The notes under the pieces were generated by a model. That model made no database searches. It was not told the origin of the DNA and worked only from the letters and a program-made list of their open reading frames with translations. Below, piece after piece: positions 30,363-59,673 of a DNA stretch of 64,000 bases. The translations under genes and the position numbers were made by a program. The DNA comes from a virus, in IMG/VR virus record IMGVR_UViG_3300050821_009780, positions 64,001 through 128,000 of that record, one strand, 5' to 3'. Numbering within the stretch: the first letter of the stretch is position 1; each line of letters starts with the position of its first letter.

Positions 30363-31312
30363 GCCCCGTTCCGGTCAAACTTGCGGAAGTACTCGTAGGT
30401 GCGCTTCATCCCGTCGGCCAGGTCCATCTCCGGCTCCCAGCCCAGCGCCCGCAGGTGCGAGTCGTCCAGGGACTTGCGGAAGGTAATCTGCCCCGGCGGC
30501 GGGACCTCCACGATGCACGACTTGCTCCCGGCCAGCTCTCTGGCCATCTGAGCCAGCTCCAGGACCGGGTAGTGGTCGTCGTTGCGGCAGACGTTCCAGG
30601 TGCCAGCCTTGCCGGCCTCCAGGATGGCGGCCAGGCCGCGCACGCTATCGCCGACCCAGGTGAGGCAGCGCTCGGTGCCGAGGTGGACGCGCAGGTCCAT
30701 CCCGTGCTCGGCCTCCCAGAGCATGGAGTGCAGCACGTTGTATCCGACGGTACCGGGCTTGCCAGAGATGTGCGGCTTCTCGGCCGTCCGGGGCGGCCAG
30801 TAGGCGGGACCGTAGGGCATGTTCAGCCGGGCGACCATGAGGCCCTTCGGGGCGTAGACCCGGCATGCCTCCTCGCCCCACTTCTTGGACAGGCCGTACA
30901 TGTTGACCGGCCGAAGCTGCGAACCGGGGCCGACGGTGCCGCTGTTGGCGGACTCGCCGTACACCTCGGAGGAGGACATGAACATGAGCCGGGAGCCGTA
31001 GTGCGCGCAGTCGCGGGCCAGCTGCCCGGTGAGGCCGGCGTTCATGCCTGCGGTCTTGTGCATGTCCACCTCGCCCCACACCCGGCCGTACAGCGCGGCG
31101 AGGTGGACCACGACATCAGGGCGGCGGTCCTCCAGCCAGTCCTCGCGGGCCTCGCGGCAGTTCAGGTCGAACAGGCGGAAGGTATCCCAGACCGGCTCGG
31201 TGGTGTTGGGGTAGACCAGGTCCTGGGCGTGGACCTCGTGGCCGCAGCGGTGCAGCTCGGCGAGCAGCCAGCCGCCGACATATCCTGACGCGCCAGTAAC
31301 AGCGATTCTCAT
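30350..31312 (-). CDS. NAD-dependent sugar epimerase/dehydratase
   Basis: MRIAVTGASGYVG, VVHLAA, SSSEVYG, YGLSK (YxxxK). Confidence 0.9.
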   Translation of the reverse strand: MRIAVTGASGYVGGWLLAELHRCGHEVHAQDLVYPNTTEPVWDTFRLFDLNCREAREDWLEDRRPDVVVHLAALYGRVWGEVDMHKTAGMNAGLTGQLARDCAHYGSRLMFMSSSEVYGESANSGTVGPGSQLRPVNMYGLSKKWGEEACRVYAPKGLMVARLNMPYGPAYWPPRTAEKPHISGKPGTVGYNVLHSMLWEAEHGMDLRVHLGTERCLTWVGDSVRGLAAILEAGKAGTWNVCRNDDHYPVLELAQMARELAGSKSCIVEVPPPGQITFRKSLDDSHLRALGWEPEMDLADGMKRTYEYFRKFDRNGAWQG

Positions 31313-32460
31313 GCGGTGAAGTACTCCGTTTTCAGCAGTCCGGCCGCCGTCAGCGGCGCGTGGTGGCCGTTCCCGTTGCCGTTCGTCGGCGGCAGGGGCG
31401 GGCAGAGCTTCTCGCTCAGCACGGCAGCGGCCAGCTCCAGCCCGGCCCGGCGGTCCTCGGTGCGGCACCTGACCTGCAGGTCCCACAGCACGCCCATCGC
31501 CCGCACCACGCGCCGGGAGTCCACGCTGTGTGCCAGCAGCAGGCGGCCCTGCAGGGCCTCGCCCTGGGCGGCAACCGTGCCCCCGGCGGACAGCACCAGC
31601 ACGTCGCGCAGGCAGGTAACCAGCTGCCGGGTAAGGGCGGGGTAGTCGCTGCAGGTGAGCAGCGCCCGGTCCAGCTCGGCGTACATCCCCTTGTGGTCGC
31701 CCTGCGCGGCGGCGGCGAGCAGGGCCGGGGCGAAGTCCTCGTCGCAGGTGAGCTGCTGCCAGGCGTCCAGGGTGACGATGTCCACCGACGCAGCCTGGTC
31801 GAGCAGCATGAGTCCGTCGCGCATGATCCCGTCGGCCCGGTCGGCCAGGTGGAGGAGCAGGCTGTCCTCGACGACAATGTCCTCGGCGGCGCAGACGTGG
31901 CGCAGCCGGGAGGCGATGACGGACGGGGCCAGCCGGGCGAACGCGAAGGGGATGCAGCGCGACCCGATCGTGTCCGGCACCTTGCCGTGCTCGGTGGTGG
32001 CGAGCACGAAAGCGGTGCGCGGCGGCGGCTCCTCCAGCGTCTTGAGCAGCGCGTTGGAGGCATCACGGCTCATGGAGTGGCACTCGTCGAGTATCACGAC
32101 CCGCCACTCGCCAGGGGCGCCGTACTGCACCAGGTCGCAGATGCTCCGGATCTTGTCCACGGTGCCGTTGGAGGCGGCGTCCACCTCGATCACGTCCAGG
32201 GAAGTGCCGCCGGCGACCGCCTTGCAGGACGAGCAGGCGGTGCAGGGCCAGGAGGCGGCCGGGCCAGGCGGCTCGTGGCAGTTGAGGGCGGCGGCGAAGA
32301 TGCGGGCGCTGGTGGTCTTGCCCGAGCCGAAGGCCCCGTAGAACAGCAGTCCGGCGGGCACGCGCTTGCGCTGGGCCATCCGGTTCAGCACCCCCGCCAC
32401 CTCGCGCTGGCCGACCAGCTCGGCGAACCGCTGAGGACGGTATTTCGTGGCCAGCCTCAT
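31309..32460 (-). CDS. dnaX: DNA polymerase III clamp loader gamma/tau subunit (gamma-length)
   Basis: LATKYRPQRFAELVGQ, GSGKTT, ALNC...C..C..C, EVDAAS, ILDECH, NALLKTLEEPP, SRC. Confidence 0.92.
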   Translation of the reverse strand: MRLATKYRPQRFAELVGQREVAGVLNRMAQRKRVPAGLLFYGAFGSGKTTSARIFAAALNCHEPPGPAASWPCTACSSCKAVAGGTSLDVIEVDAASNGTVDKIRSICDLVQYGAPGEWRVVILDECHSMSRDASNALLKTLEEPPPRTAFVLATTEHGKVPDTIGSRCIPFAFARLAPSVIASRLRHVCAAEDIVVEDSLLLHLADRADGIMRDGLMLLDQAASVDIVTLDAWQQLTCDEDFAPALLAAAAQGDHKGMYAELDRALLTCSDYPALTRQLVTCLRDVLVLSAGGTVAAQGEALQGRLLLAHSVDSRRVVRAMGVLWDLQVRCRTEDRRAGLELAAAVLSEKLCPPLPPTNGNGNGHHAPLTAAGLLKTEYFTA

Positions 32461-34780: not shown

Positions 34781-37700
34781 TTATACGAGCCTGCTGAGGC
34801 CGACCGCGAAACCGGACGCTCCCAGCTCGTCCCGGCAGCGGGGGCAGTAGTCCATATCGAACACCTCGCCGAGCAGCCCGGCCGGGACGGCGGTGCCGCA
34901 GCCGATGCACACCGGGCGCAGCAGGCTGCCCTGGAGCGGGTCGGCACCGTCGAAGAACGCGAGCCGACGGGCGGTGTAGCGCATAGCATCCACCCAGGAC
35001 TTCTTGCCGCACAGCGGAGCGTACGCCTGGTAGGGGCCGAGCTTGCCGTTGAGGATCATGCGCAGCAGCAGCCGATCAGCGTCGCGGACCAGCCAGGCGT
35101 CGGCGATGTGATCCTTGGCGTTGGCCTCCTCGGCGCTCATGCCGGAGTAGAAACTTTCCTGTTTGAGCAGCACCCGCACCTCGGGAGCCTCATCGTAGGC
35201 GCGCAGGGCGGCGGCGAGGGCCTGCTCGCCTCCCGCCACCTCCAGCTCCCAGAAGGATTTGGGGGTCGCCGGAAGCTGGGACTCCTTGGGGTAAAGCATC
35301 CAGCTCTGAAGGGCCAGCCACGGGTCCAGCTCCGCCTTGAACCAGGCGATGAAATTGTTCATCTTGTGCGGCTGACGGGTGAGGCCGAACTCGGCGTAGT
35401 CCGTCCCGGCACTGCGGTCGCGGAACTTGTAGGCATCGCTGACGATGCGGACCGACCGCTTGGCGATGGGCGGGAACCCCTCGGTGTGCTCCTGGGCGCG
35501 GTAGGCGGCGCGGCGGATGGCGAACTTCCAGTGCGCGTTCGACACGAACCGGTGCTTCTCCGACCGTTCGTACCGGAACCGGACCTTGCACGCGACGGTG
35601 GTCTGATCGAGGGGGCGGACCGGCCGGGCCTCCAGGTCGCGGTCGGTCGCCTTGAGGTAGCCCTGGCGGATCTTCAGGTCGGTCTTGTCGCAGCAGCCGC
35701 AGGTGTTGCCGGAGCAGTGCTGGTCGCAGCGGGCAATCCACTCGCTGCCGCGGTAGCTCTCGTCGAACTGCTCGTCGTAGCTCTCGCTGTCGGTTCCCTC
35801 CAGGAACTGCACCATGTGCCGGTAGGCGCCCCACATGAGCTGCTTGGAGACGCCGGTGTCGATGTGCTCCCAGCCGAACAGGTCGTCCTCGCCCATCTCC
35901 AGGAACAGGTCGTCCAGCCCGTTGCGGAACCCGTGGTTCTTCAGCGCGGCGTTGAGCCGGTCCTTCATGTCCTTGGCGACGCCGCCCCAGCAGCCGGCGG
36001 CGAGGTCCTCGATCACGTCGGTGATGGCCTCCCCGGCGTCGCGGCTGGCCCGCTGGCACGCCTGGAACAGGGCGATCTTCTCCGGCTGGGCCTTGCTGCC
36101 GAGCTTCATCTCGATCCGCTGGTCGCGGAGGTCGGCCATGGCCTGCTGGAGGGTGTAGTCGGGGGCGGTGGGGGCGAACCACTGCATGGGGGTCTGCGCC
36201 TCGATGAGCAGCGGCGTCCAGGAGAACTGGATCCGCACGCCGGGCTGGCCGAGCTGCTCGCGGATCTCTGCCAGCCGCTGGCCGAGCCTGACGATCCGCA
36301 TGACATCCCCCGCTTCCTCGCCGGGCATGTTGGAGATCATGAACAGCTTGACCTTGCGGATGCCGGCCCGGATGGCACGGGTGACGGCCTCCTCGACGTC
36401 CTGGTCGGAGACGCCCTTGCCGATCAGGTCGCGCATCCGCTGGCTGTTGCCCTCCAGGCCGAGGGTGACCGCATCGGTACCGCCGAAAGCGAGCAGCATG
36501 GAGTAATCCGGGTCGCCGATGAAGTCATCTACCCGCATCGCCCCGGTATCCACCTCGTCGGACACCTGCTCCAGCAGCCCGCCGAGCAGCTCCTTCTTGC
36601 GGGTGTACATGGGGAAGTCGGGGCCGTAAGGAGACAACTCGTTCGATCCCATGTTGAGCCGCCACTGCCTGGCCTGCTCGATCAGGTACTCCACGCTGTG
36701 CTCGCGGTAGGGCTTGTCCACGTAGGTGAGGTGGCAGTTCATCGTAAACACGCCGTCCGCCAGCGAGAAGCGGTGCGAACCCGGCACAGTCAGGCAGTAG
36801 ACCTCCTGCGGCTTGTCCAGCGGCTCGATGGCCTCAACGCACCACCCGTGCCTTTCCGGCTTGACCAGGGTGTGCTGCATGAGCGGAGCGCTACGCGGCC
36901 CGAAGTTGGTTACGTCGGAACGGCTCTGACAGCAACCGACGTACACCCAGCCTCCCTGCGCAGCGTGTCGCTCCAGCCACTGGCTGGGAGACGTGTCGCC
37001 ATGGTGCTGAGCACTGTACTGCGCAGCAAGAACATAAGAGGTCTCCTTAGCACGCAGGGTGCCATCTGCGGCAAGCCAGCCTTCCAGGAACCCAGCTACG
37101 TAAGCGGTATCAACTGCGGGCGAAGGCCATGACTTGACATCGAAGGCGGCCCACCCATAGACCACAACATCACCCTTGGCGTAATCCGGGTTCTGAATGG
37201 AACTGACCCGGAGGTCAGGGCGGACAGCCCAAGAATCCCGGTCGTCCTGGTCAGGCTGCCAAAACTTCTCGAACCAAGGCCGAACGGCGGCGTCCTTGCC
37301 AAACAGGCGCACCTTGAAGGAACCCGACAGCACAGGCCGCCGTTCACCGGTAGAGAGCTTCCGCTGGTGGCCGTCCCCGAACAGGAACCCGTGCACCCGG
37401 CCGAGGTCGTAGCTCGACCCGTCGTACTGCACCGAGGCAGCAGCAGCAGGCACAAAGTCTCCAGCCCGTAGCGCATGCGTCTCCGTACCATCTACCAGCT
37501 CCCAGCCATGCGCCGCAGTGGCTGTGACCTGAACCCGATGCGTGGCCTTGGGGTTACGTCGCCAGGCTCCGTTCGCCGTTCCGCAGTCGGCGGGACGGAA
37601 GGTGATGCGCTGCACCGCCTGGACCCCGTGCGACTCTACGGTAGCGCTAGCCCAAGCCGCGCCATCCCAGACCTCAGCCTTCCCGACCCCGTGCAACCAG

Positions 37701-38659
37701 TCGATGGATGAGATGCCCCACTCGCGAGACAAAACCTGAGTCTCCCCGATCAACGGGAAGCTGCACCAGGCCGGGCAGCCCTTGCCTGCCTCGATGTCCC
37801 CCGCGCCCATGCCCGGGTCGGAGTACAGCAGCGGGGCCTGGGTGTGCGGGGCGGCGCTGTCCAGGTCCTTGACGTACCGCTTCTTGAACCTGACCGCCGG
37901 GCCGCCGAGCGCCGTAGGGCCGGACCACCCGCTCACCAGCTTGGTCGGCTCGGGCAGCCCGCGGTCCTCGTACCTGTAGCCGAACTCCACCTCGCGGGGG
38001 AAGTACAGGAACGGGAACTCCACCGCCAGCATCCGGTAGCACATGGACCGCTCGGCCCGCCACAGGCCGTCCGCCTTCATGTCCGCGATGGCTTCCATGA
38101 CCACCGAGATGCCGGGGTTGCCGGGGGCGTCCTCGGCCTCGCCGAGGAAGACGCAGTCCACTACCGGGGCCATGAACTCGGGGTGGCTCCACGCCTGCCC
38201 GCCGGCCATGACCATGGGGTAGGCACCCGGGTCACCCAGGCGGTCGCGCCAGCGCAGCGGGATGCCACTTACCCGGAGGTACTGGCAGAAGTTGAGCCAG
38301 AGGACGGTGTAAGAAATAGAAGTAGCGAAGACGTCGAAGTCCTGTACGCCGTGCTTGGTCTCAATCCCGAAGACAGGTAGACCCGCCCGCTCCAGCAGGC
38401 GGAAGTCACGTGGGGTGGCAGGCAGGTAGAAACGGTCACAGAGCGCTCCAGGAGAGTCGTTGACGCACCGGTAGACGACCGGGGTGGAGTTGTTCCCCGC
38501 CGCCTGCATGTACGGCCAGGAGGCCGCCAGGAGCATGCGGACGGACGCCTGGTCCCACGGCTTACGGACGGAGCCCGGCTCGTCGCCCAGGTATGCCTCG
38601 GGGCCGTCCAGCTTCCACAGATTGCCGTCCAGCCAGCGCTGGATATGCCCAGGGTCCAC
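34781..38659 (-). CDS. TIGR03960-like radical SAM protein fused to a DUF2344/TIGR03936-like domain, intein-interrupted
   Basis: PEAYLGDE, DRFYLP, LPVFGIET, GG...HPE, GEAE; spliced motif GCPAWCSF/C; EGNSQRMRDLIGKG; KVKLFMI; C-terminal VRFRYERSEKHRFVS...AIRRA. Confidence 0.8.
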   Translation of the reverse strand: MDPGHIQRWLDGNLWKLDGPEAYLGDEPGSVRKPWDQASVRMLLAASWPYMQAAGNNSTPVVYRCVNDSPGALCDRFYLPATPRDFRLLERAGLPVFGIETKHGVQDFDVFATSISYTVLWLNFCQYLRVSGIPLRWRDRLGDPGAYPMVMAGGQAWSHPEFMAPVVDCVFLGEAEDAPGNPGISVVMEAIADMKADGLWRAERSMCYRMLAVEFPFLYFPREVEFGYRYEDRGLPEPTKLVSGWSGPTALGGPAVRFKKRYVKDLDSAAPHTQAPLLYSDPGMGAGDIEAGKGCPAWCSFPLIGETQVLSREWGISSIDWLHGVGKAEVWDGAAWASATVESHGVQAVQRITFRPADCGTANGAWRRNPKATHRVQVTATAAHGWELVDGTETHALRAGDFVPAAAASVQYDGSSYDLGRVHGFLFGDGHQRKLSTGERRPVLSGSFKVRLFGKDAAVRPWFEKFWQPDQDDRDSWAVRPDLRVSSIQNPDYAKGDVVVYGWAAFDVKSWPSPAVDTAYVAGFLEGWLAADGTLRAKETSYVLAAQYSAQHHGDTSPSQWLERHAAQGGWVYVGCCQSRSDVTNFGPRSAPLMQHTLVKPERHGWCVEAIEPLDKPQEVYCLTVPGSHRFSLADGVFTMNCHLTYVDKPYREHSVEYLIEQARQWRLNMGSNELSPYGPDFPMYTRKKELLGGLLEQVSDEVDTGAMRVDDFIGDPDYSMLLAFGGTDAVTLGLEGNSQRMRDLIGKGVSDQDVEEAVTRAIRAGIRKVKLFMISNMPGEEAGDVMRIVRLGQRLAEIREQLGQPGVRIQFSWTPLLIEAQTPMQWFAPTAPDYTLQQAMADLRDQRIEMKLGSKAQPEKIALFQACQRASRDAGEAITDVIEDLAAGCWGGVAKDMKDRLNAALKNHGFRNGLDDLFLEMGEDDLFGWEHIDTGVSKQLMWGAYRHMVQFLEGTDSESYDEQFDESYRGSEWIARCDQHCSGNTCGCCDKTDLKIRQGYLKATDRDLEARPVRPLDQTTVACKVRFRYERSEKHRFVSNAHWKFAIRRAAYRAQEHTEGFPPIAKRSVRIVSDAYKFRDRSAGTDYAEFGLTRQPHKMNNFIAWFKAELDPWLALQSWMLYPKESQLPATPKSFWELEVAGGEQALAAALRAYDEAPEVRVLLKQESFYSGMSAEEANAKDHIADAWLVRDADRLLLRMILNGKLGPYQAYAPLCGKKSWVDAMRYTARRLAFFDGADPLQGSLLRPVCIGCGTAVPAGLLGEVFDMDYCPRCRDELGASGFAVGLSRLV
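36737..37756 (-). mobile_element. Class 3 intein (340 aa) with LAGLIDADG homing endonuclease
   Basis: Starts PLIGETQVL; block B ATAAHGW; block F VYCLTV; ends GVFTMN/C; GFLFGDG and GFLEGWLAADG; visibly more A/T-rich codons than the flanks. Confidence 0.88.
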
Positions 38660-40354: not shown

Positions 40355-41554
40355 CTAGTATCCCACCAGCGAAGAAGCCATCTGCGTGAGCACCTGAACG
40401 GTCCCGGTGCCCTCCAGAAGGATAACGGAGCGGCGCTTGCCGAGGTCCTTGCCGAGCCGGAACGCGCAGGTCACATCAGGGTGCGCGGCCAGCATCTCGG
40501 CGAGGAACACGTGGTTGACGCACAGCACCCGCTCCTTGCCGGGCCAGTCGGTGACCAGCTGAACGGGCACGGACGCGGAGTGGCCCACCTGATCGCGGGA
40601 CACCACGGTAACGGTGCTGCCCTCGACGACCAGCGCGATGGCGGCGGTGTCGGCGTCGGCGTTGACCCGGACGCACCGCACGGCAGCCGACAGCTCCTCG
40701 CGGTCCACGGCGAGTACCTGGTCGTTATCCCCCGCCGGGCCGAGCAGCTGCTTGTCCATGTCCGGGAACGGGGTGGAGCGGCGGGCCACGGCGAACACCA
40801 CGTGGTCGGCGCGGAACACCAGGGCATCCTCGGTGACGGCCACGCCGACGGCGTCGCCCTGGCTGCCGGACACCAGCCGGACGATGTCGTCCAGGGCCGA
40901 GGAGGGGATGCACATGGGGTGGGGGAACTCGTCCAGCTCGGCGCGGGCGAACCGGGTGCCGTCGGAGGCGGTGATGCGCCTGCCCTCGAACCCGTCCGAG
41001 CCTTCGGGGGCGCCGATCTCCACCTGGGTGAGCATGGGGCGGCCGGCGTCGCGGCACACCGCATGGCGTACCGCCTTCAGCCCGGCGAGGAACTTCTCCG
41101 CCGGGTACAGGAAGAACCCCAGCTCGGACGGCTCCAGCAGCTGCGGGTACTCGCCGCTGTCCGGCAGGGCGAACACCCAGGAGGCGCTCCCGGCGGTGAC
41201 GGTCGCCCGATCCTTCTTCACCGCGACGGTAATGCTCTCCTCCGTCGCCTCCTTCAGCACGGCCTGGAGCTTCTTCGCCGGGATGAACGCCTCGGCGGAA
41301 GCTGACTCGTCCACGCTGTCGCCGGTCCACACCGCCTCCGTGGAGGCGAGGACGATGCGCTCCATGTCGGTGGCGGCCAGCTCCAGCCCGGCATGGCTCA
41401 CCCGGACCCGGTAGCAGCTAAGCACGGGGAACTGGCCGGAGGAGGGCACCGCCGGTGCCACGGCAGCGGCCAGGGCCTTCAGCACGTACGGCTTGACCCG
41501 GAAGGTGAACTCCCCGTAATCGGTTCCCGCAGCCGGTTCGTCCGCCTCGTTCAC
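40355..41554 (-). CDS. dnaN: DNA polymerase III beta sliding clamp
   Basis: PVLS, LAATDME, IPAKKL, EYP, RPMLT, ASDGTR, FPD; ~400 aa three-domain length. Confidence 0.88.
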   Translation of the reverse strand: MNEADEPAAGTDYGEFTFRVKPYVLKALAAAVAPAVPSSGQFPVLSCYRVRVSHAGLELAATDMERIVLASTEAVWTGDSVDESASAEAFIPAKKLQAVLKEATEESITVAVKKDRATVTAGSASWVFALPDSGEYPQLLEPSELGFFLYPAEKFLAGLKAVRHAVCRDAGRPMLTQVEIGAPEGSDGFEGRRITASDGTRFARAELDEFPHPMCIPSSALDDIVRLVSGSQGDAVGVAVTEDALVFRADHVVFAVARRSTPFPDMDKQLLGPAGDNDQVLAVDREELSAAVRCVRVNADADTAAIALVVEGSTVTVVSRDQVGHSASVPVQLVTDWPGKERVLCVNHVFLAEMLAAHPDVTCAFRLGKDLGKRRSVILLEGTGTVQVLTQMASSLVGY

Positions 41555-50538: not shown

Positions 50539-50933
50539 CAGATGGTCTCCCAGCCGTTGTTGTCCCCCAGGAGGCGCAGCCGCCGCAGCTCGGTCAGCAG
50601 GCGGACGAAGTGCTCGCCGGACATGGTGACGTAGCCGGTGCCTGGGTCGGTGGCCTGGAGGCGGGGCGAGAGCCGGCGGCGGTGCCACACGGCCCCGACC
50701 GGCACCTTGGCGTTATCCGCCTCGGCCACGGCCTCGTCCACCCACTGGGCCAGGGTCTGGCCCTTGCAGTTCTTCGCCTCGATGACGACACCGGGCACCG
50801 ACGGCACCTCGATATCTCCCTCGTCCTTGCTCCCGGCCTGGACCTTGCGCCGGGCCGGGAGGCCGCGGAGCGCCAGGTAGGCGACCACCGAGACCTCCCA
50901 CGAGGTGCCTTTTTTCTTGGCGGGGTTCGACAT
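50538..50933 (-). CDS. Holliday junction resolvase (PD-(D/E)XK, actinophage type)
   Basis: KKKGTSWE...DEGDI...VIEAKN. Confidence 0.75.
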
Positions 50934-52141
50934 CAGACCCCGTCGAGCAAGTTGTCGAAGTCGAAGTCCCCGCTAGAAGACGCCGTCTCCGGAGACGGCG
51001 TAGAGGAGGGCGCACTGGCAGGGGCTGAACCCGCAGCACTCTCACTCTCATCCCCGAAAGGGTCGTCAAGAACCTTCCGGGCCTTCTCCGCCTGCTGCGC
51101 AGCCTCCTGCTCCCGCTCGACGCCTGCTACCAGGCCGGCCGCGTCAGAAGGGCGGGCAGTCCGGGGAGTCGCAGGCTTTTTCGTTGAGGCAGAAGCCTTC
51201 TTTGGCGCAGCCTGCGGCGAGTCCGGCAGGAACTCCGCGAAAGGGTCGGCCACCGCAGAGCCCAGCGCCGCCTTCTGCTCGTCGGTCATCGCGTCCAGGA
51301 CCGTGCCGGCATCCTGGGTCTCCTCCCCGAGCAGCTCCTCGATGCCGCCGGACAGGTCGGCGGCCTTGGACTGGAACGCCTCGGAGACCTGGCCCTCGTT
51401 GCGCAGCTTGCGCCACTGGCGCATCGCGAACTCGCAGTCCTCCTGCATCCGCTCGCGCGGCACGGCCGAGCCGCAGCCGTCCTTGAGCTGGGCGTCGGTG
51501 GCCCGGTTGCCCGCCGTGCCGAGCAGCTCCTTCAGGTAGCCTGCCGGGGCTTCCTTGTAGCCCGGGTCCATCTTGAACGCGAGCTTGTTCCGCTGCCAGC
51601 TCGGCTCCTCGCACTCCAGGGTGATGTCGTGCCGGCGCAGGTCGCCGATCTCCTGCTGGATGCCCTCGATCTCATCGTAGATGCGGCCGGTGAACTTCCA
51701 CATCTTGATGGAGGCGCTGAACGGCTTGGCGGTGTTGAAGCTGTTCCCGGCCAGGGTGTAGTACACCACGTTGACCGCGAACCGCTGCACCGGGCCGGCG
51801 ATGTCCCCGCCTGACTTGACAGACGCGTCGCAGGCGGGGCAGTTCCGCTCGTCGATTCCCTTTTCCCTCAGCGTGTCCTCGTCGCCCAGGCAGATCTCGG
51901 TGCGCAGCAGTTCCAGATCGTAGTCGTCGTACTCGTCGCCGTTCTTCCGCCTCTTCTTTTCCTTCTTCGGGGTGCCGTCGTCGTGAAACTTGGGGTGCTT
52001 GATGTAGTGAACGAATTCGCGCCACGGTTCTTCGATGACTGTGAAACGTGCCTTCTGGCCTTTTTCCGTAAGCTTGACTGAGGGGAACCCGGCCGTGCCT
52101 TCGCCGGTCTTGTTCTCGGGTGCGACCGCTACTCTGCCCAT
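50933..52141 (-). CDS. T4 gp32-like single-stranded DNA-binding protein
   Basis: H...C...CPAC Zn ligands, RFAVNVV, KMWKF, acidic tail DFDFDNLLDGV; adjacent to RecA. Confidence 0.7.
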   Translation of the reverse strand: MGRVAVAPENKTGEGTAGFPSVKLTEKGQKARFTVIEEPWREFVHYIKHPKFHDDGTPKKEKKRRKNGDEYDDYDLELLRTEICLGDEDTLREKGIDERNCPACDASVKSGGDIAGPVQRFAVNVVYYTLAGNSFNTAKPFSASIKMWKFTGRIYDEIEGIQQEIGDLRRHDITLECEEPSWQRNKLAFKMDPGYKEAPAGYLKELLGTAGNRATDAQLKDGCGSAVPRERMQEDCEFAMRQWRKLRNEGQVSEAFQSKAADLSGGIEELLGEETQDAGTVLDAMTDEQKAALGSAVADPFAEFLPDSPQAAPKKASASTKKPATPRTARPSDAAGLVAGVEREQEAAQQAEKARKVLDDPFGDESESAAGSAPASAPSSTPSPETASSSGDFDFDNLLDGV

Positions 52142-53082: not shown

Positions 53083-53210
53083 AGCTTCCTCCGGTACAGC
53101 CACAGGCCTGCCACGACGACAAGCCCTGCGGCGATGACAATAACTGAACCCAGCCCGCGCATGGGCGTACGCCCACCCTGCCAGGCCCAATCCCAGTGAA
53201 GCGGGTTCAT
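53079..53210 (-). CDS. Small membrane peptide
   Basis: ...VIVIAAGLVVVAGLWLYRRKL single TM segment. Confidence 0.45.
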   Translation of the reverse strand: MNPLHWDWAWQGGRTPMRGLGSVIVIAAGLVVVAGLWLYRRKL

Positions 53211-53806
53211 AACCTCTCCATGTCGGTCTGCCGCATGAGCGCGGTCAAGCGGCGGCTGAGATCCTGCCGCACACCATCCAGGCCGTAGTAATGCAGCCGG
53301 ATGCGCCGCTCTATGTCGGACGCGGTGTCGGCCAGCGCCCGGGCGTCCCGGGCGCGCTTGCGCTGATCGCGGCAGGCCAGGCGCCAGTAGGCGTACCGTT
53401 CCTGCGCACCCTCGTACTCCCGGCGCCCGTAGCGCTTCTCCTTCATGGCCTGGTCGTCCCAGGCATCGTCCGCCTCGGCCTCCAGCCTGCGGGCCTTGGT
53501 CTCGCAGGCTCCCTTGAGGCCGATGGCCATGGACAGCAGCGTCTCGATGTGGCCCAGGTGCCCGCTGGCGGACACCATCGCCTCGTAGACAGCAGTGTGC
53601 GGCGCAGACGACGACGGAACCCGCGCTGCGGCGCGGTACTTCATGGCGGTCTTCAGCCAGCCCTTGCACTCCTCGACCAAGACTGCGGCCGGATCGGGCA
53701 GCGGCTCCTCCGGCTCGTGATGAACTGGATCATAACGAGGATGCCCGCAGTTGCAGAGAACACTGCCGTGGGTGGGGTCCGACGTGAACGGATGCACCTC
53801 AGCCAC
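53207..53806 (-). CDS. Coiled-coil protein (possible recombination mediator)
   Basis: 199-aa helical ORF with N-terminal H...CNCGH...H; function speculative. Confidence 0.55.
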   Translation of the reverse strand: MAEVHPFTSDPTHGSVLCNCGHPRYDPVHHEPEEPLPDPAAVLVEECKGWLKTAMKYRAAARVPSSSAPHTAVYEAMVSASGHLGHIETLLSMAIGLKGACETKARRLEAEADDAWDDQAMKEKRYGRREYEGAQERYAYWRLACRDQRKRARDARALADTASDIERRIRLHYYGLDGVRQDLSRRLTALMRQTDMERL

Positions 53807-54128
53807 CCGGGGCTGCCCGGAACATGATGGCCTTGATGATCTTGTCCTTCTCGTCCCGGTGCGCCTTCATCTCGGCCTTGACCGCGGCGACCTGCTTGTC
53901 GTCCAGCCTGCCATCAACCAGGAACGGCTGGACCTGGAGCAGGGTCAGCCGGGCGTAGGCCTCGGTCTCGTGGTGCACCAGGCCGAACGCCTCGGCGAAC
54001 CGCAGCTCGGAAGCCTCGGATGGCGGGATGCCGTTCTCCTGGAGGATGCGCTTGATGTCGTCCTCATCCGCCTCGACGTCGAACTTCCGCTCGCCCCACT
54101 TGGTGTTCCACCCTGCTCGTGCTCGCAT
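53799..54128 (-). CDS. Hypothetical protein
   Basis: MRARAGWNTK..., AGGAG RBS. Confidence 0.6.
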   Translation of the reverse strand: MRARAGWNTKWGERKFDVEADEDDIKRILQENGIPPSEASELRFAEAFGLVHHETEAYARLTLLQVQPFLVDGRLDDKQVAAVKAEMKAHRDEKDKIIKAIMFRAAPGG

Positions 54129-54135
54129 GCTCCTG

Positions 54136-56694
54136 CTACAGCTCCAGCCCGGCACCGAGCGCGGTCAGGTCCACCGACGCCTCATCGTAGCGGACCACGG
54201 CCCCGCCGCAGATCACGGACAGGTCGGCCTGGTCGGCCGGGGCCACCCCGCAGGTGCCAGTCATGATGACCCGCTCGCCGTCCGGGAGCACCAGCACCAG
54301 CGTGTTCGGACCTGTCCTGACGCGGCAGTAGCGGACCAGCTCCGGCACCGCTTCCTGCGGCATGCGCCCGGTCAGCTCCACAATCACCGTACGGGGCACC
54401 GGGTGCCCGTGCTCGCTCTCATACTCCTCGCGAGCGGGCGGCAGCGCATCATGCCCGTGCTCGTTCTCGTACTCCTGTGCCTGCCGGGTCCCAGCGTAAT
54501 CCGGTTCCTCCCGCCTGCTCCTTATCTCCGCCAGGGCGGGCAGCACCGGGGCGGGGGCCACATCGTCCTCGTCCTCCTCGGACAGGTCGATGTCGGTTTC
54601 CGGCTTCACGGCCCCGGCGGCGAAGCGGTACCGGCTGTCCGGGCCCTTCTCCAGGGTGCGGACCGACCCCCAGCGCCGCCCGGCGTGCCACTCGGCGAGC
54701 ATGGGCGGCCAGCCGGGGACGGGGAAGATGATCGCGGGCTCCAGCACCGCGATCACGTCGTTGAAGTCCACGTCGTTGCGGACGTACCACTCCAGGGCGT
54801 CGTGGATGTTCATGACGAGCCGGACCTTGTCCTTCAGCCCGGCCTTGCGCAGCGCGGCCTCGGAGCGGACCATGGCGATTTTCATGTAGTCGCCGGTGGC
54901 GGACCCCTGCACCGGGGCGTTGCCGGCGGTGCGCTGCGCATCGCGGCGCTTGCGGCGGTCTGTGCTGTCGATGTCCCAGATGCGGACCTGGCGCCCCCAC
55001 CAGGTGGTGACGTACCCGGTGTCGTACGCGGTCTTGATGCACTCCTCGGTGAACGCCTTGATCTTCGGGTAGGCGGCGTGGAAAGCGGCGAACAGGTCGG
55101 CCGCCTCGGCCCGGCTGATGCCGAGCCGGTCGGCGAGGCCATCTTCGGACAGCCCGTAGACCATGGCCAGGCCGAGCGTCTTGCCGACGTCGCGCTGATC
55201 GGGGGTGACCTCCTCGACCGGGACGGCGAACACCAGCGACGCGGTGACCGAGTGCACGTCCACGTTGTGCTCGAAGGCGTAGAACATCTTCTGCTCGTGC
55301 GCCATGCCGGCGACCGCGCGCAGCTCCGCCTGGGCCAGGTCGTAGCCGAGCTGGTACCAGCCCGGCGGCGCCCCGATCATGTCCCGGAAGTTGAACTTGA
55401 ACTCATCACCGTCGCGCAGCGTGTAGAAGTACTTCTTGGGCGACTGCTGGTAGTTCGGATCGTTGCAGGCAAACCGGCCGGCCGGGACGCCGTGCTGCAT
55501 GAGCGAGGCGTGCACCCGGCCGTCTTCGGCGTAGCCGTAGGCGTCCTCGAACTTGACCAGGAAGTCGCGGTACAGCTTGGTGAGCTTCTTCCACTTCAGG
55601 AAGCTGGCGACCTCGGGGTAGGTCTTAGACAGTCCCTTGAGCGCGACCTTCGCATCTGTGCCCTGCTGCGGCCCGGTAGTCTTCCCGCCCTTGGTCCAGT
55701 GAGTGCACGGCATGCCGCAGTCCTCGTACAGCAGCTTGCGAAGCTGGACCGGGGAGCCGAAGTTGAACGTGGGCAGCAGCGCCTCGCCTCGCAGCGCCCC
55801 GAAGTCCTCGCGGACCTCCTCCATGTAGCGGTCGGCGAAGTCCTTCGCCTTCCGGCCCCACTCGCGCATGCCGTTGAAGTCGTACCAGATGCCCTCGTCC
55901 TCCATCTCGCAGACGACGGGCAGCACGGCCATTTCCAGCTTCCAGATGAACCCCTGGCCCTTGGCCTGGCTCTCGGCGAGCATCTGCTGCAGCCGCGGGT
56001 AGCGGAGCCGGTGGTGGGCCAGCGCGTAGACGGTGTCCTCGCAGGTGTAGCGGACCACCTTGGGGTCGCGCGGGTCCAGCACGTTGAACCGGATCTGCTT
56101 CCGCTGCTTGGCGGTGAGCTTGTCCGGGTACAGCTCCGCCAGCTCCAGCTGCTTGTGCCAGAAGCCGCTGGTGTCGCGGGCCTCCTGCTCCTCGGTCAGC
56201 TCCTTGAGGCCGTGGAGACGGCTGCCGGCCAGGGCGTAGGACTCCAGCATGGTGTCGGAGCGGAGCCGGAACTGCTGGTAGTCCAGGTCGGTGCCGAGCT
56301 GCTCGTTGAACCAGCGGCGCAGCACCCGCAGGTCGAACTTGCCGCCGTGGAAGGTCATGAGCGGCTGCCCGGACTCGCTGCGCGCCTGGGTGAACAGCGG
56401 GTAGAGCAGCTCAGCTACGCCGCGCGGGTCGAGATTGGGTCCGACATCGTGCCCGACGGGGACGTACCGGGACCACTTCAGCGAGTTGGTGAAGGAGACC
56501 CCGGCGATGAAGTTCTCCTCCGGGTGCAGCGACGCCTTATCGCGCGAGTCCCCCAGGTATCCGGTCTCGATGTCGCCGCTGCACGCACGCCCATCGGGCT
56601 TAGCGGGGTCGGTGCACTCGACGGTGACCCGGGCGACGTACTCCCTCAGCTCGTCCAGGCTGCCGATGAGATCGTAACTAGGCTGGAAGGCCAC
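54136..56694 (-). CDS. polA: Family A DNA polymerase with 3'-5' exonuclease and an extra C-terminal domain
   Basis: ExoI DIET, ExoII KFDL, ExoIII YTCED; NFGSPVQL, GRFACNDPNYQQ, motif A DLAQAELR, motif B RDVGKTLGLAMVYG, motif C IHDA. Confidence 0.93.
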   Translation of the reverse strand: MAFQPSYDLIGSLDELREYVARVTVECTDPAKPDGRACSGDIETGYLGDSRDKASLHPEENFIAGVSFTNSLKWSRYVPVGHDVGPNLDPRGVAELLYPLFTQARSESGQPLMTFHGGKFDLRVLRRWFNEQLGTDLDYQQFRLRSDTMLESYALAGSRLHGLKELTEEQEARDTSGFWHKQLELAELYPDKLTAKQRKQIRFNVLDPRDPKVVRYTCEDTVYALAHHRLRYPRLQQMLAESQAKGQGFIWKLEMAVLPVVCEMEDEGIWYDFNGMREWGRKAKDFADRYMEEVREDFGALRGEALLPTFNFGSPVQLRKLLYEDCGMPCTHWTKGGKTTGPQQGTDAKVALKGLSKTYPEVASFLKWKKLTKLYRDFLVKFEDAYGYAEDGRVHASLMQHGVPAGRFACNDPNYQQSPKKYFYTLRDGDEFKFNFRDMIGAPPGWYQLGYDLAQAELRAVAGMAHEQKMFYAFEHNVDVHSVTASLVFAVPVEEVTPDQRDVGKTLGLAMVYGLSEDGLADRLGISRAEAADLFAAFHAAYPKIKAFTEECIKTAYDTGYVTTWWGRQVRIWDIDSTDRRKRRDAQRTAGNAPVQGSATGDYMKIAMVRSEAALRKAGLKDKVRLVMNIHDALEWYVRNDVDFNDVIAVLEPAIIFPVPGWPPMLAEWHAGRRWGSVRTLEKGPDSRYRFAAGAVKPETDIDLSEEDEDDVAPAPVLPALAEIRSRREEPDYAGTRQAQEYENEHGHDALPPAREEYESEHGHPVPRTVIVELTGRMPQEAVPELVRYCRVRTGPNTLVLVLPDGERVIMTGTCGVAPADQADLSVICGGAVVRYDEASVDLTALGAGLEL

Positions 56695-57314: not shown

Positions 57315-58235
57315 TTACGCCCAGAGAGCGGCGACCGCCTCCAGGATTCCGTCCCGGGCCCCGGACTTCCAGGCGGACTCGGCCAGAGCGAGGACCTCCC
57401 GGCAGCGGGCCGTCCTGCGCGGGGTGTAGGCGGCAGCGTACGGCCGGAGCAGCCGCACCGAGTACGCGTCTATCTTCAGCCGGATGGCGGCGTCCTGCGC
57501 GCTCACGCCCTTGCGGGCGGCATCGCTGAGCACGGACAGCACGGTCAGCCGGGACGACAGCAGGGCGAGCACCTGGCCGGCCTGGTCCGGGGGGGTAAAT
57601 GCGGCAGCCGCCATGGCGGCCTTCACGTTGCCGGCCACCATCAGGTCGGCGAACTCGTACCGGGCGGCGGGCGGGCACACCAGGTCCAGCGCGGGCACCT
57701 CCGGAGGCAGGTCGGCGAACCCGGCCTTCAGGGCGGCGTGCCGGGCGGCGGCGATATCTCCCGCGCACCGCTCCAGCAGGGCGGCCCCGAAGTTGCGCCC
57801 GGCGCCAGGCCACCAGGAGGCGGCGAGCTGCGCCTGCCCCTCCGGGTCCTTCGGGACGGTGCAGCGGACCAGCTGGCCGTGCCGGGAGTCGCGCAGGGCG
57901 GCCAGCGACGGGGCGAGGACGGACCGCGGCCTGTCCGGCTTCTCGCTGCGCTCCTCGGTGCGCGGGAAGTCGTCGTCAGCGGAGACGAACACGGTGAACG
58001 CGCGGTCGAACTCGTCGGCCAGCAGCAGCGGCAGCCGGTCCAGGTGGCCGAGCTTCTCCGCTCCCCATACGGTAACCAGCCTCGGGCCGGACGGGACGGC
58101 CAGCAGGATATCCCACGGGTTGCTCTCAGGCCACAGGTTCCACCGGCTGGCTCCGGGCAGCGCCTCGGCGTAGGCGGCGGTGACATCATGGCGCAGCACC
58201 GGCTCCGGCCCGCACACCCAGGCGACCCGGGTCAC
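57315..58235 (-). CDS. holA: DNA polymerase III delta subunit (HolA-like)
   Basis: AWVCGPEPVLR N-terminal strand, RLVTVWGAEK, ALLERCAGDI, EFADLMVAGN, LALAESAWKSG: HolA architecture; start codon uncertain. Confidence 0.6.
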   Translation of the reverse strand: MTRVAWVCGPEPVLRHDVTAAYAEALPGASRWNLWPESNPWDILLAVPSGPRLVTVWGAEKLGHLDRLPLLLADEFDRAFTVFVSADDDFPRTEERSEKPDRPRSVLAPSLAALRDSRHGQLVRCTVPKDPEGQAQLAASWWPGAGRNFGAALLERCAGDIAAARHAALKAGFADLPPEVPALDLVCPPAARYEFADLMVAGNVKAAMAAAAFTPPDQAGQVLALLSSRLTVLSVLSDAARKGVSAQDAAIRLKIDAYSVRLLRPYAAAYTPRRTARCREVLALAESAWKSGARDGILEAVAALWA

Positions 58236-58273
58236 CGGCTTCTTGCGCGCCCACTGGCTGTAAGTGCCGACGG

Positions 58274-58681
58274 CTAGCTCCCCGGCTTCAGGGAGAAACC
58301 GGTCTCGGCGGCCAGCTGGCGAATCATAGAGGGAGTGAACGACGCACCCAGGCCGAGCTGCGCCTTGCGGCCCTGCTCGCCGGCGGCCTGCTGCTGCTCT
58401 GCTACCTGCTGCTCGAAGGAGATGCGGGCCTGGATCGCCCACAGCTGGCCCGGCGGCCCGAATGCCTCGGCGACCGACTGGATAAGGCTGTCGAGCCGGG
58501 CGCTGAGCACCGTGCCAGGGTCGAACTGGATGCCCCGGCGGGCCAGCTCGGCAAACCCGGCCTTGTTCTGCTCGACGAGCCCGTTCAGGTGCTGCTGCAT
58601 CTGCGCGGCCTGCTGAGCCAGCTGCTGCTCCTGGGTCAATGCCTGCCCGTTCGGCTGCCCGAACCCGTTGGTCCCTGCCAT
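58274..58681 (-). CDS. Gln-rich hypothetical protein
   Basis: 135 aa, between the holB- and holA-like genes. Confidence 0.6.
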   Translation of the reverse strand: MAGTNGFGQPNGQALTQEQQLAQQAAQMQQHLNGLVEQNKAGFAELARRGIQFDPGTVLSARLDSLIQSVAEAFGPPGQLWAIQARISFEQQVAEQQQAAGEQGRKAQLGLGASFTPSMIRQLAAETGFSLKPGS

Positions 58682-59473
58682 TTACCTTTCCTCCCTGAAC
58701 GCGCTGGACAGCGCAACCGACGAAGCATTCCTCGCACCCTCGTACCGCCCCAGGGCGCGCAGCACCCGGCGGGCCTGGTCGCTGGTCACGCCGGGGGCGA
58801 ACCCGGCGGAGAACCGCACCCACCGGGCGGAGGCGGCCTCTTCCGCCCAGGCGCGCAGCACCCCGGCGTGGGCCGGGGTCCAGAAGCGGAGCGCCAGCTC
58901 CAGCACCGCGCCATCGCCGTCCTGCGCGGCACGCAGGGCTGCGGCGACCACCGAACGAAGCCTGCCGCCATCACTGTCCCGGGCTGCCTCCAGGGCCGGA
59001 GCGACCCGGCCGCGGCCGAGCGGGGCGCACCGCAGCGCCTCGCTGCGACCGCAGTGCTGCTCCAGCACCTCGGCGACCTGCGCATCGGTGAGCAGGCTGA
59101 CCCGGTACACCACGGCCCGGGAGACGACGGTGGGCAGCGGCGGGCGGGACGCGGTAAGCAGGAACCGGATGTGCGGCGGCGGATCCTCCAGCACCTTGAG
59201 CAGAATGTTCTGCGCGGCCTCGGTGGTTCCGTCCAGCCCGATGATCACTGCGATGCTCCCGCCCTGCGGGCGCTGGCGCGGGACCAGCCCGACAATTTCC
59301 CGGGCGAGCGCGGCAGAGGGGCCGTCGTAGCCGTAGGAGGTCATGCGGTGGTGCCGGGCGGCATGCTGGGCCAGCTCGGTCTTGCCGACCGAGGACGGGC
59401 CGAGCAGCAGGGTGACCGGAAGCAGATCGCGCTCCAGCTCAGCCCGCAGCGCCTCGTGACCGACGAGCCTCAC
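58682..59473 (-). CDS. holB: DNA polymerase III delta-prime subunit (HolB-like)
   Basis: LVGHE, LLLGPSSVGK, AQNILLKVLEDPP, FLLTA, LPTVVSR. Confidence 0.75.
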   Translation of the reverse strand: MRLVGHEALRAELERDLLPVTLLLGPSSVGKTELAQHAARHHRMTSYGYDGPSAALAREIVGLVPRQRPQGGSIAVIIGLDGTTEAAQNILLKVLEDPPPHIRFLLTASRPPLPTVVSRAVVYRVSLLTDAQVAEVLEQHCGRSEALRCAPLGRGRVAPALEAARDSDGGRLRSVVAAALRAAQDGDGAVLELALRFWTPAHAGVLRAWAEEAASARWVRFSAGFAPGVTSDQARRVLRALGRYEGARNASSVALSSAFREER

Positions 59474-59673
59474 GGAGATACTGCCTCCACTGCCGCGCGG
59501 ACAGCGCGCCGGTGACGCGAGCTGCCTGCACCGCGCCCGTAATCCCAGGATTCGTACACTTCCCGCCGCAACGGCCCGGGCACCTGCTTCCAGTGTGCCG
59601 GGCACATGAGCCTGACGACATCAACCTGCACCGTGCAATCAGGTCCCGGGCACGTATGAGGGGTCCTGGGCAT
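59470..59673 (-). CDS. Small Zn-binding phage protein
   Basis: HTCPGPDC...LMCPAHW. Confidence 0.6.
   Translation of the reverse strand: MPRTPHTCPGPDCTVQVDVVRLMCPAHWKQVPGPLRREVYESWDYGRGAGSSRHRRAVRAAVEAVSP

Follow-up and report, generated by a model that had tools for sequence, protein, structure and literature searches.

In bacteria, the extreme C-terminal domain (CTD) of the family C polymerase DnaE, the alpha subunit of Pol III, is the part by which tau holds the polymerase, and DNA polymerase families A and C are not homologous. The present analysis concerns polA, the family-A DNA polymerase gene of a virus from IMG/VR (record IMGVR_UViG_3300050821_009780), located in a window of 64,000 nucleotides that corresponds to positions 64,001 to 128,000 of that record. 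According to the structure predictions, the small domain close to the C-terminus of its product very likely shares the fold of the tau-binding domain of DnaE. No description of a PolA with a DnaE-type CTD was found in the searchable literature, an absence that by itself proves no novelty.

The combination of PolA with a clamp and a gamma protein is already known, since PolA occurs together with a Pol III beta clamp and a homolog of gamma in the large phages Ma-LMM01 and RSL1 (Kazlauskas and Venclovas 2011, PMC3201878). These phages share with the present one the hybrid composition of a family-A polymerase, a bacterial-type clamp and a clamp-loader subunit in the absence of DnaE, whereas the delta- and delta'-like subunits of the present lineage set it apart from them. 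The C-terminal tail described below was not detected in the Ma-LMM01 and RSL1 genomes with a 61-sequence profile at E<=1, and it is therefore not shared generally by phages in which PolA and a clamp occur together. Another described system is the actinobacterial PolA2/APEX, a cellular and error-prone enzyme with an inactive exonuclease and an internal QxxLF clamp-binding motif, which a 2026 survey describes as the first family-A polymerase of bacteria in which a clamp motif has been identified (PMC12926913). It belongs to family A, as the phage PolA does, and has been proposed to work with the beta clamp, but it has no DnaE-like C-terminal domain and its clamp motif is internal.

The family-A polymerase and its C-terminal tail

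The source record is 143,503 bp long, is rated 100% complete and has about 69% G+C, with nearly all genes of the phage located on the minus strand. The polA gene and the regions of its product are as follows (positions in the window; aa, amino acids).

54136..56694, minus strand: polA, family-A DNA polymerase of 852 aa, from the open reading frame (ORF) and its translation; stop codon 54136-54138
55945..56694, minus strand: 3'-5' exonuclease region, residues ~1-250, with motifs DIETGY (41-46), GGKFDL (117-122) and YTCED (216-220)
54643..55824, minus strand: polymerase domain, residues 291-684, with motif A YDLAQAELR, motif B RDVGKTLGLAMVYG and motif C NIHDAL (629-634)
54538..54591, minus strand: acidic patch with a proline-rich motif, IDLSEEDEDDVAPAPVLP (residues 702-719), unchanged among the three closest homologs
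54394..54537, minus strand: low-complexity variable linker, residues 720-767, differing in length and sequence among homologs
54181..54393, minus strand: DnaE-CTD-like domain (predicted), residues 768-838, beta-alpha-beta-beta-alpha-beta, with a conserved PGxNTVxL motif
54139..54180, minus strand: conserved C-terminal peptide ASVDLTALGAGLEL, residues 839-852, family consensus S-V-D-x3-[LVI]-x2-G-[LIV]-x-[LF]-COOH

The product is a family A DNA polymerase in which motifs A, B and C and the exonuclease motifs I-III are intact. Pfam DNA_pol_A (PF00476) covers residues 291-641 with an E-value of 2.4e-75 (254 bits, against a cut-off of 34.3 bits), and PHROG 17, DNA polymerase, is matched with an E-value of 4.6e-94. 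The translation retains the catalytic residues D452 (in DLAQAELR), R501, K505 and Y513 of motif B, and H631 and D632 of motif C, together with D41, E43, D121, Y216 and D220 of the exonuclease, whose motifs are also kept in the alignment of PolA with two homologs of 850 and 846 aa. Pfam DNA_pol_A_exo1 is matched by the homologs P0063 and P0076.

The original prediction had stated that family-A polymerases of phages normally end soon after motif C, and the comparison with other phages bears this out. All 2,545 PolA matches obtained by tblastn in 50,697 phage records, each with less than 60% identity, end by about residue 682-684 (ends at 675-684), and eleven distant tail-less phage PolAs stop about 50 residues or less past the polymerase domain. 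The PolA of the present phage continues for about 170 residues beyond the point where its similarity to other PolAs ends (~residue 684), and the last 88 codons (54136-54400) translate exactly as they had been quoted. Following the end of the polymerase (EWHxGxxWGS), this tail consists of a hairpin-like segment, an acidic patch, a variable linker, a domain of ~75 aa and a terminal peptide. The acidic patch contains the stretch IDLSEEDEDDV at residues 702-712, after motif C, and about 30 more distant tailed PolAs have an acidic patch at the equivalent place, often with LPxVDxxxLRxA next to it. In the terminal peptide, the conserved columns hold V in 43, D in 48, G in 48 and a final L or F in 48 of 61 sequences, and no other protein of the 143.5-kb genome ends in this way. 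The peptide is probably flexible, since its predicted local distance difference test (pLDDT) values are low. The acidic patch with its helix motif and the hydrophobic C-terminal peptide past the DnaE-like domain are two conserved elements that come in addition to those of the original prediction.

The motif LPxVDxxxLRxA following the acidic patch (window 54394-54591, minus strand; homologs P0019, P0027, P0043, P0066 and P0085) resembles the first half of SVDxxxLxxGL, and because of this resemblance one short linear motif may be present twice in the tail.

Predicted fold of the tail domain

In regard to the structure of the tail, AlphaFold2 (AF2) gave one confident model from a three-sequence alignment (pLDDT 73.5), while all five models from a 61-sequence alignment reached pLDDT 83-88, the best of them 87.7. 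The predicted topology is beta-alpha-beta-beta-alpha-beta, with low confidence in the last ~10 residues, so that the beta-alpha-beta-beta-alpha pattern which had been read from the letters alone is recovered with a final strand added. When both AF2 models were compared with the PDB by Foldseek, Thermus aquaticus Pol III alpha (2hpi, 3e0d, 4iqj) took ranks 1-5 with probabilities of 0.99-0.60. Likewise, the Pol III alpha CTD was the top and the sole clear match of the tail in a VIA-align search of 48,161 PDB representatives, and VIA-align of Foldseek's top 1,000 chains placed the match at residues 1121-1210 of T. aquaticus (Taq) alpha and 1070-1160 of Escherichia coli alpha, which is the extreme C-terminal domain. 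The nearest named models in the ESM Atlas were Pol III alpha C-terminal fragments (HHH_6, OB, PF20914) from five phyla, with TM-scores by query of 0.59-0.67, and in a language-model feature search with the tail, the first-ranked cluster (0.91) carries PF20914 on 23% of its members. In a viral structure library, the two best rows were other viral PolAs. Of all folds, the solved alpha CTDs give the best superposition with the tail model, and it is very likely, as far as predicted models can tell, that the tail domain shares the fold of the extreme C-terminal, tau-binding domain of DnaE. The resemblance to this domain, which the original prediction had proposed, thus stands as the top structural match in Foldseek/PDB, VIA-align and the ESM Atlas, and is accompanied by the weak collinear profile-profile signal with actinobacterial DnaE1 described in the following section.

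The predicted fold and the strand order are shared by the tail and the Pol III alpha CTD (Taq 2HPI and 4IQJ, residues ~1127-1205; E. coli 5FKU, ~1072-1160), and both domains stand at the extreme C-terminus of a replicative polymerase. The context in which they are found is different. The tail domain of the phage is preceded by a family A polymerase and a disordered acidic linker, while the DnaE CTD belongs to a family C polymerase and is preceded by an OB-fold and HhH; no OB or HhH domain was found in the phage PolA. Furthermore, the phage tail has a conserved 14-residue peptide beyond the domain, unlike the alpha CTD, and this peptide lies outside the region that aligns to the C-terminus of E. 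coli alpha. The analysis presented here shows that the domain exists, is conserved and is, as modelled, fold-equivalent to the DnaE CTD.

Sequence evidence for homology

Sequence evidence for homology between the tail and the DnaE CTD is weak, and several results weigh against such a relationship, as well as against the docking role discussed below. A Pfam scan of the tail at E<=1 gave no match, DNA_pol_IIIA_C (PF20914) included; this model is narrow, with 52 positions that cover the gammaproteobacterial form, it matches only E. coli among 14 control genomes, and its annotation is missing from most actinobacterial DnaE1 too. A PHROG scan of the tail gave nothing relevant. The DnaE CTD makes no significant profile-to-sequence match with the phage tail, as an hmmsearch of tail profiles against PDB sequences gave E-values of 0.7-1.4; three of the seven sub-threshold rows listed are alpha chains, matched at the CTD (7pu7 1119-1156 and 2hpi 1127-1165). 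For profile-profile comparison, DnaE CTD alignments were built from 74 gammaproteobacterial genomes and from about 110 DnaE proteins of actinobacteria and Streptomyces phages. With the 74 gammaproteobacterial CTDs, hhalign returned a probability of 9% and a short, off-register match, and in the reciprocal search a hidden Markov model (HMM) of the DnaE1 CTD did not recover the tail among the phage's 1,506 six-frame ORFs.

The comparison with actinobacterial DnaE1 CTDs gave a collinear match over the whole domain (P 1.9e-4, probability 48%), which with a trimmed 40-sequence alignment became P 5.1e-5, probability 67% and 75 collinear columns. Against the real score of 27.3, the best of 60 column-shuffled templates scored 17.1 and the reversed template 10.9; as a reference, true DnaE CTDs of actinobacteria and gammaproteobacteria align to each other with a probability of 97.5%. 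For each of 111 full-length actinobacterial DnaE1 proteins, the best segment matched by the tail HMM was located within the last 110 aa, compared with 2 of 97 for a reversed profile, although these 111 proteins are mutually related and hence do not amount to 111 independent trials. In the hhalign alignment, the tail and actinobacterial DnaE1 have in common the motif PG-x-[NT]-x-V-x-L at the junction of helix 1 and strand 2.

An alternative explanation is that the resemblance is convergent or generic. The tail would then be an unrelated small alpha/beta domain engaged in DNA binding, polymerase dimerisation or small-ligand regulation, with no docking of the tau type. We regard convergence as unlikely, and homology of the tail domain with the DnaE CTD as probable, somewhat better than an even chance. 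The source of the tail could be an actinobacterial or an actinophage DnaE. Many actinophages encode DnaE, and the DnaE CTD of the Streptomyces phage Nerdos visibly shares the pattern VVIEL...HPGxTEVxLRL with the tail.

The CTD of Nerdos DnaE (gene 52) is recognisable but shortened, since it stops after helix 2 and is without the last strand; therefore, the CTD varies within the family C polymerases of phages too.

Distribution of the tail

Two homologs with the same architecture, 850 and 846 aa long, were found by a word-indexed search and are 70% and 68% identical to the phage PolA over its full length. An HMM of the last ~90 aa, searched exhaustively against 1.84 billion cluster representatives, matched 85 of them at E<=1e-3, 21 at E<=1e-10. 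As a consequence of these 85 matches, the tail can be regarded as a recurrent, real module and not as a chance extension of an ORF. Among the tail matches of at least 315 aa that were run through Pfam, all 28 carry DNA_pol_A and none a C-family polymerase, and the shorter matches are C-terminal fragments of tailed polymerases. Three tail-matching fragments (391, 247 and 237 aa) had no Pfam match, and one of these visibly starts with the PolA C-terminal region.

One cultured carrier is the Microbacterium phage Magritte, whose gene 69 matches the tail profile with an E-value of 2.7e-20 (61-sequence HMM). Its product, gp69 (OR553905), is annotated as 'DNA polymerase I' and has 888 aa; it is a distant member of the tailed PolAs, with 32% identity over the polymerase. 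The linker of gp69 is longer and Lys/Glu-rich, its C-terminal peptide has diverged (...GDFLGVDV), and the tail is unannotated in the record. Magritte and the phage have syntenic replication modules, in which two ASCE ATPase genes are found together with polA, small genes and the genes of SSB and RecA. Neither megablast with polA nor tblastn with the tail yielded a match for the tail in the 50,697 phage records, and tblastn with the Magritte tail returned Magritte alone; BLAST is too insensitive for this domain.

Some of the tailed homologs show additional features. In P0036, P0049, P0084 and P0085 (1,150-1,464 aa), LAGLIDADG homing-endonuclease, intein-like inserts are located within the polymerase domain, and in the metagenomic homologs P0007, P0029 and P0038 the ORF extends 25-160 aa beyond the usual ...GLxL end. 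These extensions could be a result of stop read-through, fusion or assembly error.

Replication genes around polA and the possible partners of the tail

DnaE is absent from the phage genome. The genes around polA that are relevant to replication are the following.

31309..32460, minus strand: gamma-like DnaX of 383 aa, without the tau C-terminal domains; Pfam DNA_pol3_delta2 and DNAX_ATPase_lid
40355..41554, minus strand: beta sliding clamp of 399 aa; Pfam DNA_pol3_beta and DNA_pol3_beta_2
50933-52141, minus strand: SSB-like protein of 402 aa, without a Pfam or PHROG match; homologous to the annotated SSB of Magritte (phmmer 2e-39)
53207..54155, minus strand: pair of small conserved genes next after polA, encoding ~118 aa (this gene overlaps the stop of polA) and 199 aa; candidate accessory proteins
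57315..58277, minus strand: tentative delta (HolA)-like subunit; Pfam DNA_pol3_delta_C E 3.4e-4, 21 bits, below the 27-bit cut-off
58682..59605, minus strand: delta'-like clamp-loader subunit of 307 aa; Pfam DNA_pol3_delta2 E 4e-9, PHROG 5846 clamp loader

The translated ORFs of the window also include a DnaB-type helicase and a RecA-like gene, as well as Mre11/Rad50-like genes. A protein of 135 aa is encoded between the delta- and delta'-like genes, and the replication module also includes a primase. Two relatives of ~150 kb, Magritte and partial metagenomic contigs retain the gene order delta', delta, polA, two small genes, SSB and RecA, and the tentative delta-like gene is conserved and syntenic in three related loci (L002, L003 and L099) and in Magritte. 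All three relatives tested encode a clamp and a DnaX (for the clamp these are G001, G002 and Magritte). Two distant tailed members, L123 and L124, have a clamp or delta' gene near polA, and no clamp-loader gene was found in the flanks of the eleven tail-less PolA loci.

The PolA of the phage thus ends in a flexible appendage of ~170 aa, and at its core would be the ~75-aa alpha/beta domain with the DnaE-CTD fold, with the acidic patch before it and the hydrophobic peptide behind it, so that two short motifs and a domain would be carried on a flexible acidic linker. Since the phage has no DnaE but encodes its own clamp, gamma-like DnaX, delta- and delta'-like subunits, DnaB-type helicase, SSB and RecA, the appendage is most likely a tether. 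It would dock the polymerase to another protein of the replisome, in the way the alpha CTD docks Pol III to tau. On balance we lean towards the view that the ~75-aa domain is a DnaE-CTD-like docking module on the family-A polymerase of a phage, the docking function being what we infer from the gene content and the predicted fold. Candidate partners would be the clamp (via the C-terminal peptide), the gamma-like clamp loader, DnaB, the small proteins encoded beside polA and the host tau.

The canonical partner of a DnaE CTD is missing from these phages, which weighs against the docking role. DnaX is gamma-like and without tau domains IV-V in all four genomes examined, and the matches of the short DnaX homologs in three relatives end at about residue 355 of the query. 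The original prediction had already given the length of DnaX as 383 aa and suspected the lack of tau domain V, and on both points it was right. A search of the phage genome for tau domain V (PF12170) gave no match, with a model that is insensitive and matches only 3 of 14 control genomes. The search for gamma domain III (PF12169) likewise gave no match in the phage genome, at low sensitivity.

One way around a missing partner would be docking of the polymerase on the tau of the host, which keeps domain V, and borrowing of the host's clamp loader and helicase coupling. The lack of tau domains IV-V in the phage's own DnaX in all four genomes would fit such an arrangement, as would the tail profile being closer to actinobacterial than to gammaproteobacterial DnaE CTDs, which agrees with an actinobacterial host, as in the case of Magritte on Microbacterium (M. 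foliorum). On the other hand, the phage's own clamp, gamma-like DnaX, delta- and delta'-like subunits and helicase argue for an autonomous replisome, and the identity of the tail with host-type CTDs is very low, at 13-18%. We consider docking on host tau quite improbable.

Alternatively, the main function could reside in the last 14 residues, with LxxGLx[L/F]-COOH binding the phage beta clamp and the folded domain merely presenting the peptide. This possibility overlaps with the docking explanation, as it names the clamp as the partner. Clamp peptides are found at the C-terminus of T4/RB69 gp43, Pol II and Pol IV, and hexapeptide clamp motifs include QLVLGL of Pol IV and QVELEF at the end of E. 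coli alpha. The terminal peptide of the tail is strongly conserved, predicted to be flexible, located at the extreme C-terminus and unique in the genome; the residues at its end agree with the xxxLx[L/F] half of the hexapeptide motifs, and every tailed-PolA phage tested encodes a clamp. A clamp motif in a family-A polymerase has also been reported, in actinobacterial PolA2 (PMC12926913). However, the consensus [LVI]xxG[LIV]x[LF]-COOH keeps the last two hydrophobic positions and lacks both the Gln at the start and the hydrophobic residue at position 2 of QL[SD]LF, and a clamp motif leaves the upstream conservation of a DnaE-CTD-like fold unexplained. Moreover, Ma-LMM01 and RSL1 also pair PolA with a beta clamp, yet they do so without such a tail. 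A complex prediction of the phage clamp dimer with the tail domain and peptide scored 0.00, a value that counts neither for nor against binding. That the clamp peptide is the main function of the tail we hold to be of low probability.

Returning to the docking module, its most specific form would be a family-A replicase that captured the docking domain of a C-family polymerase and is coupled through it to a tau-less loader, to the helicase or to a new adaptor, for example a small protein encoded after polA. We put this forward tentatively, as a possible but somewhat doubtful scenario. A C-terminal docking domain shared between replicases of the two families would be a clear case of module exchange, and it would show how a phage builds a hybrid replisome from PolA and a bacterial clamp and loader. 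It would also raise the question of what holds the domain in a phage whose DnaX lacks the polymerase-binding part of tau. If the partner is new, it would extend what is known about the coupling of polymerases to clamp loaders or helicases, and if a docking domain was indeed captured, the link between polymerase and loader would have been rebuilt into a new replisome architecture in actinophage-like viruses. Since Magritte is a cultured member, pull-downs, tail deletions and reconstituted processivity assays are feasible.

The two small proteins encoded downstream of polA (118 and 199 aa) could be accessory subunits of the polymerase. Neither has a Pfam or PHROG match, and a feature search in the Atlas with the 199-aa protein gave only a weak UvsY-like lead at 0.79. 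Both genes have homologs in L002 and L003; in Magritte, a homolog could be detected for the 199-aa gene alone, and in L123 and L124 genes of matching size follow polA.

Two further observations concern the neighbourhood of polA. The last residues of the SSB-like protein, DFDFDNLLDGV, are acidic and hydrophobic and resemble the C-terminal tips of SSB proteins. Within the replication module, between the clamp and DnaX genes, a radical-SAM protein of 1,292 aa (Radical_SAM_N2 and Radical_SAM) is encoded at 34781-38659 on the minus strand.

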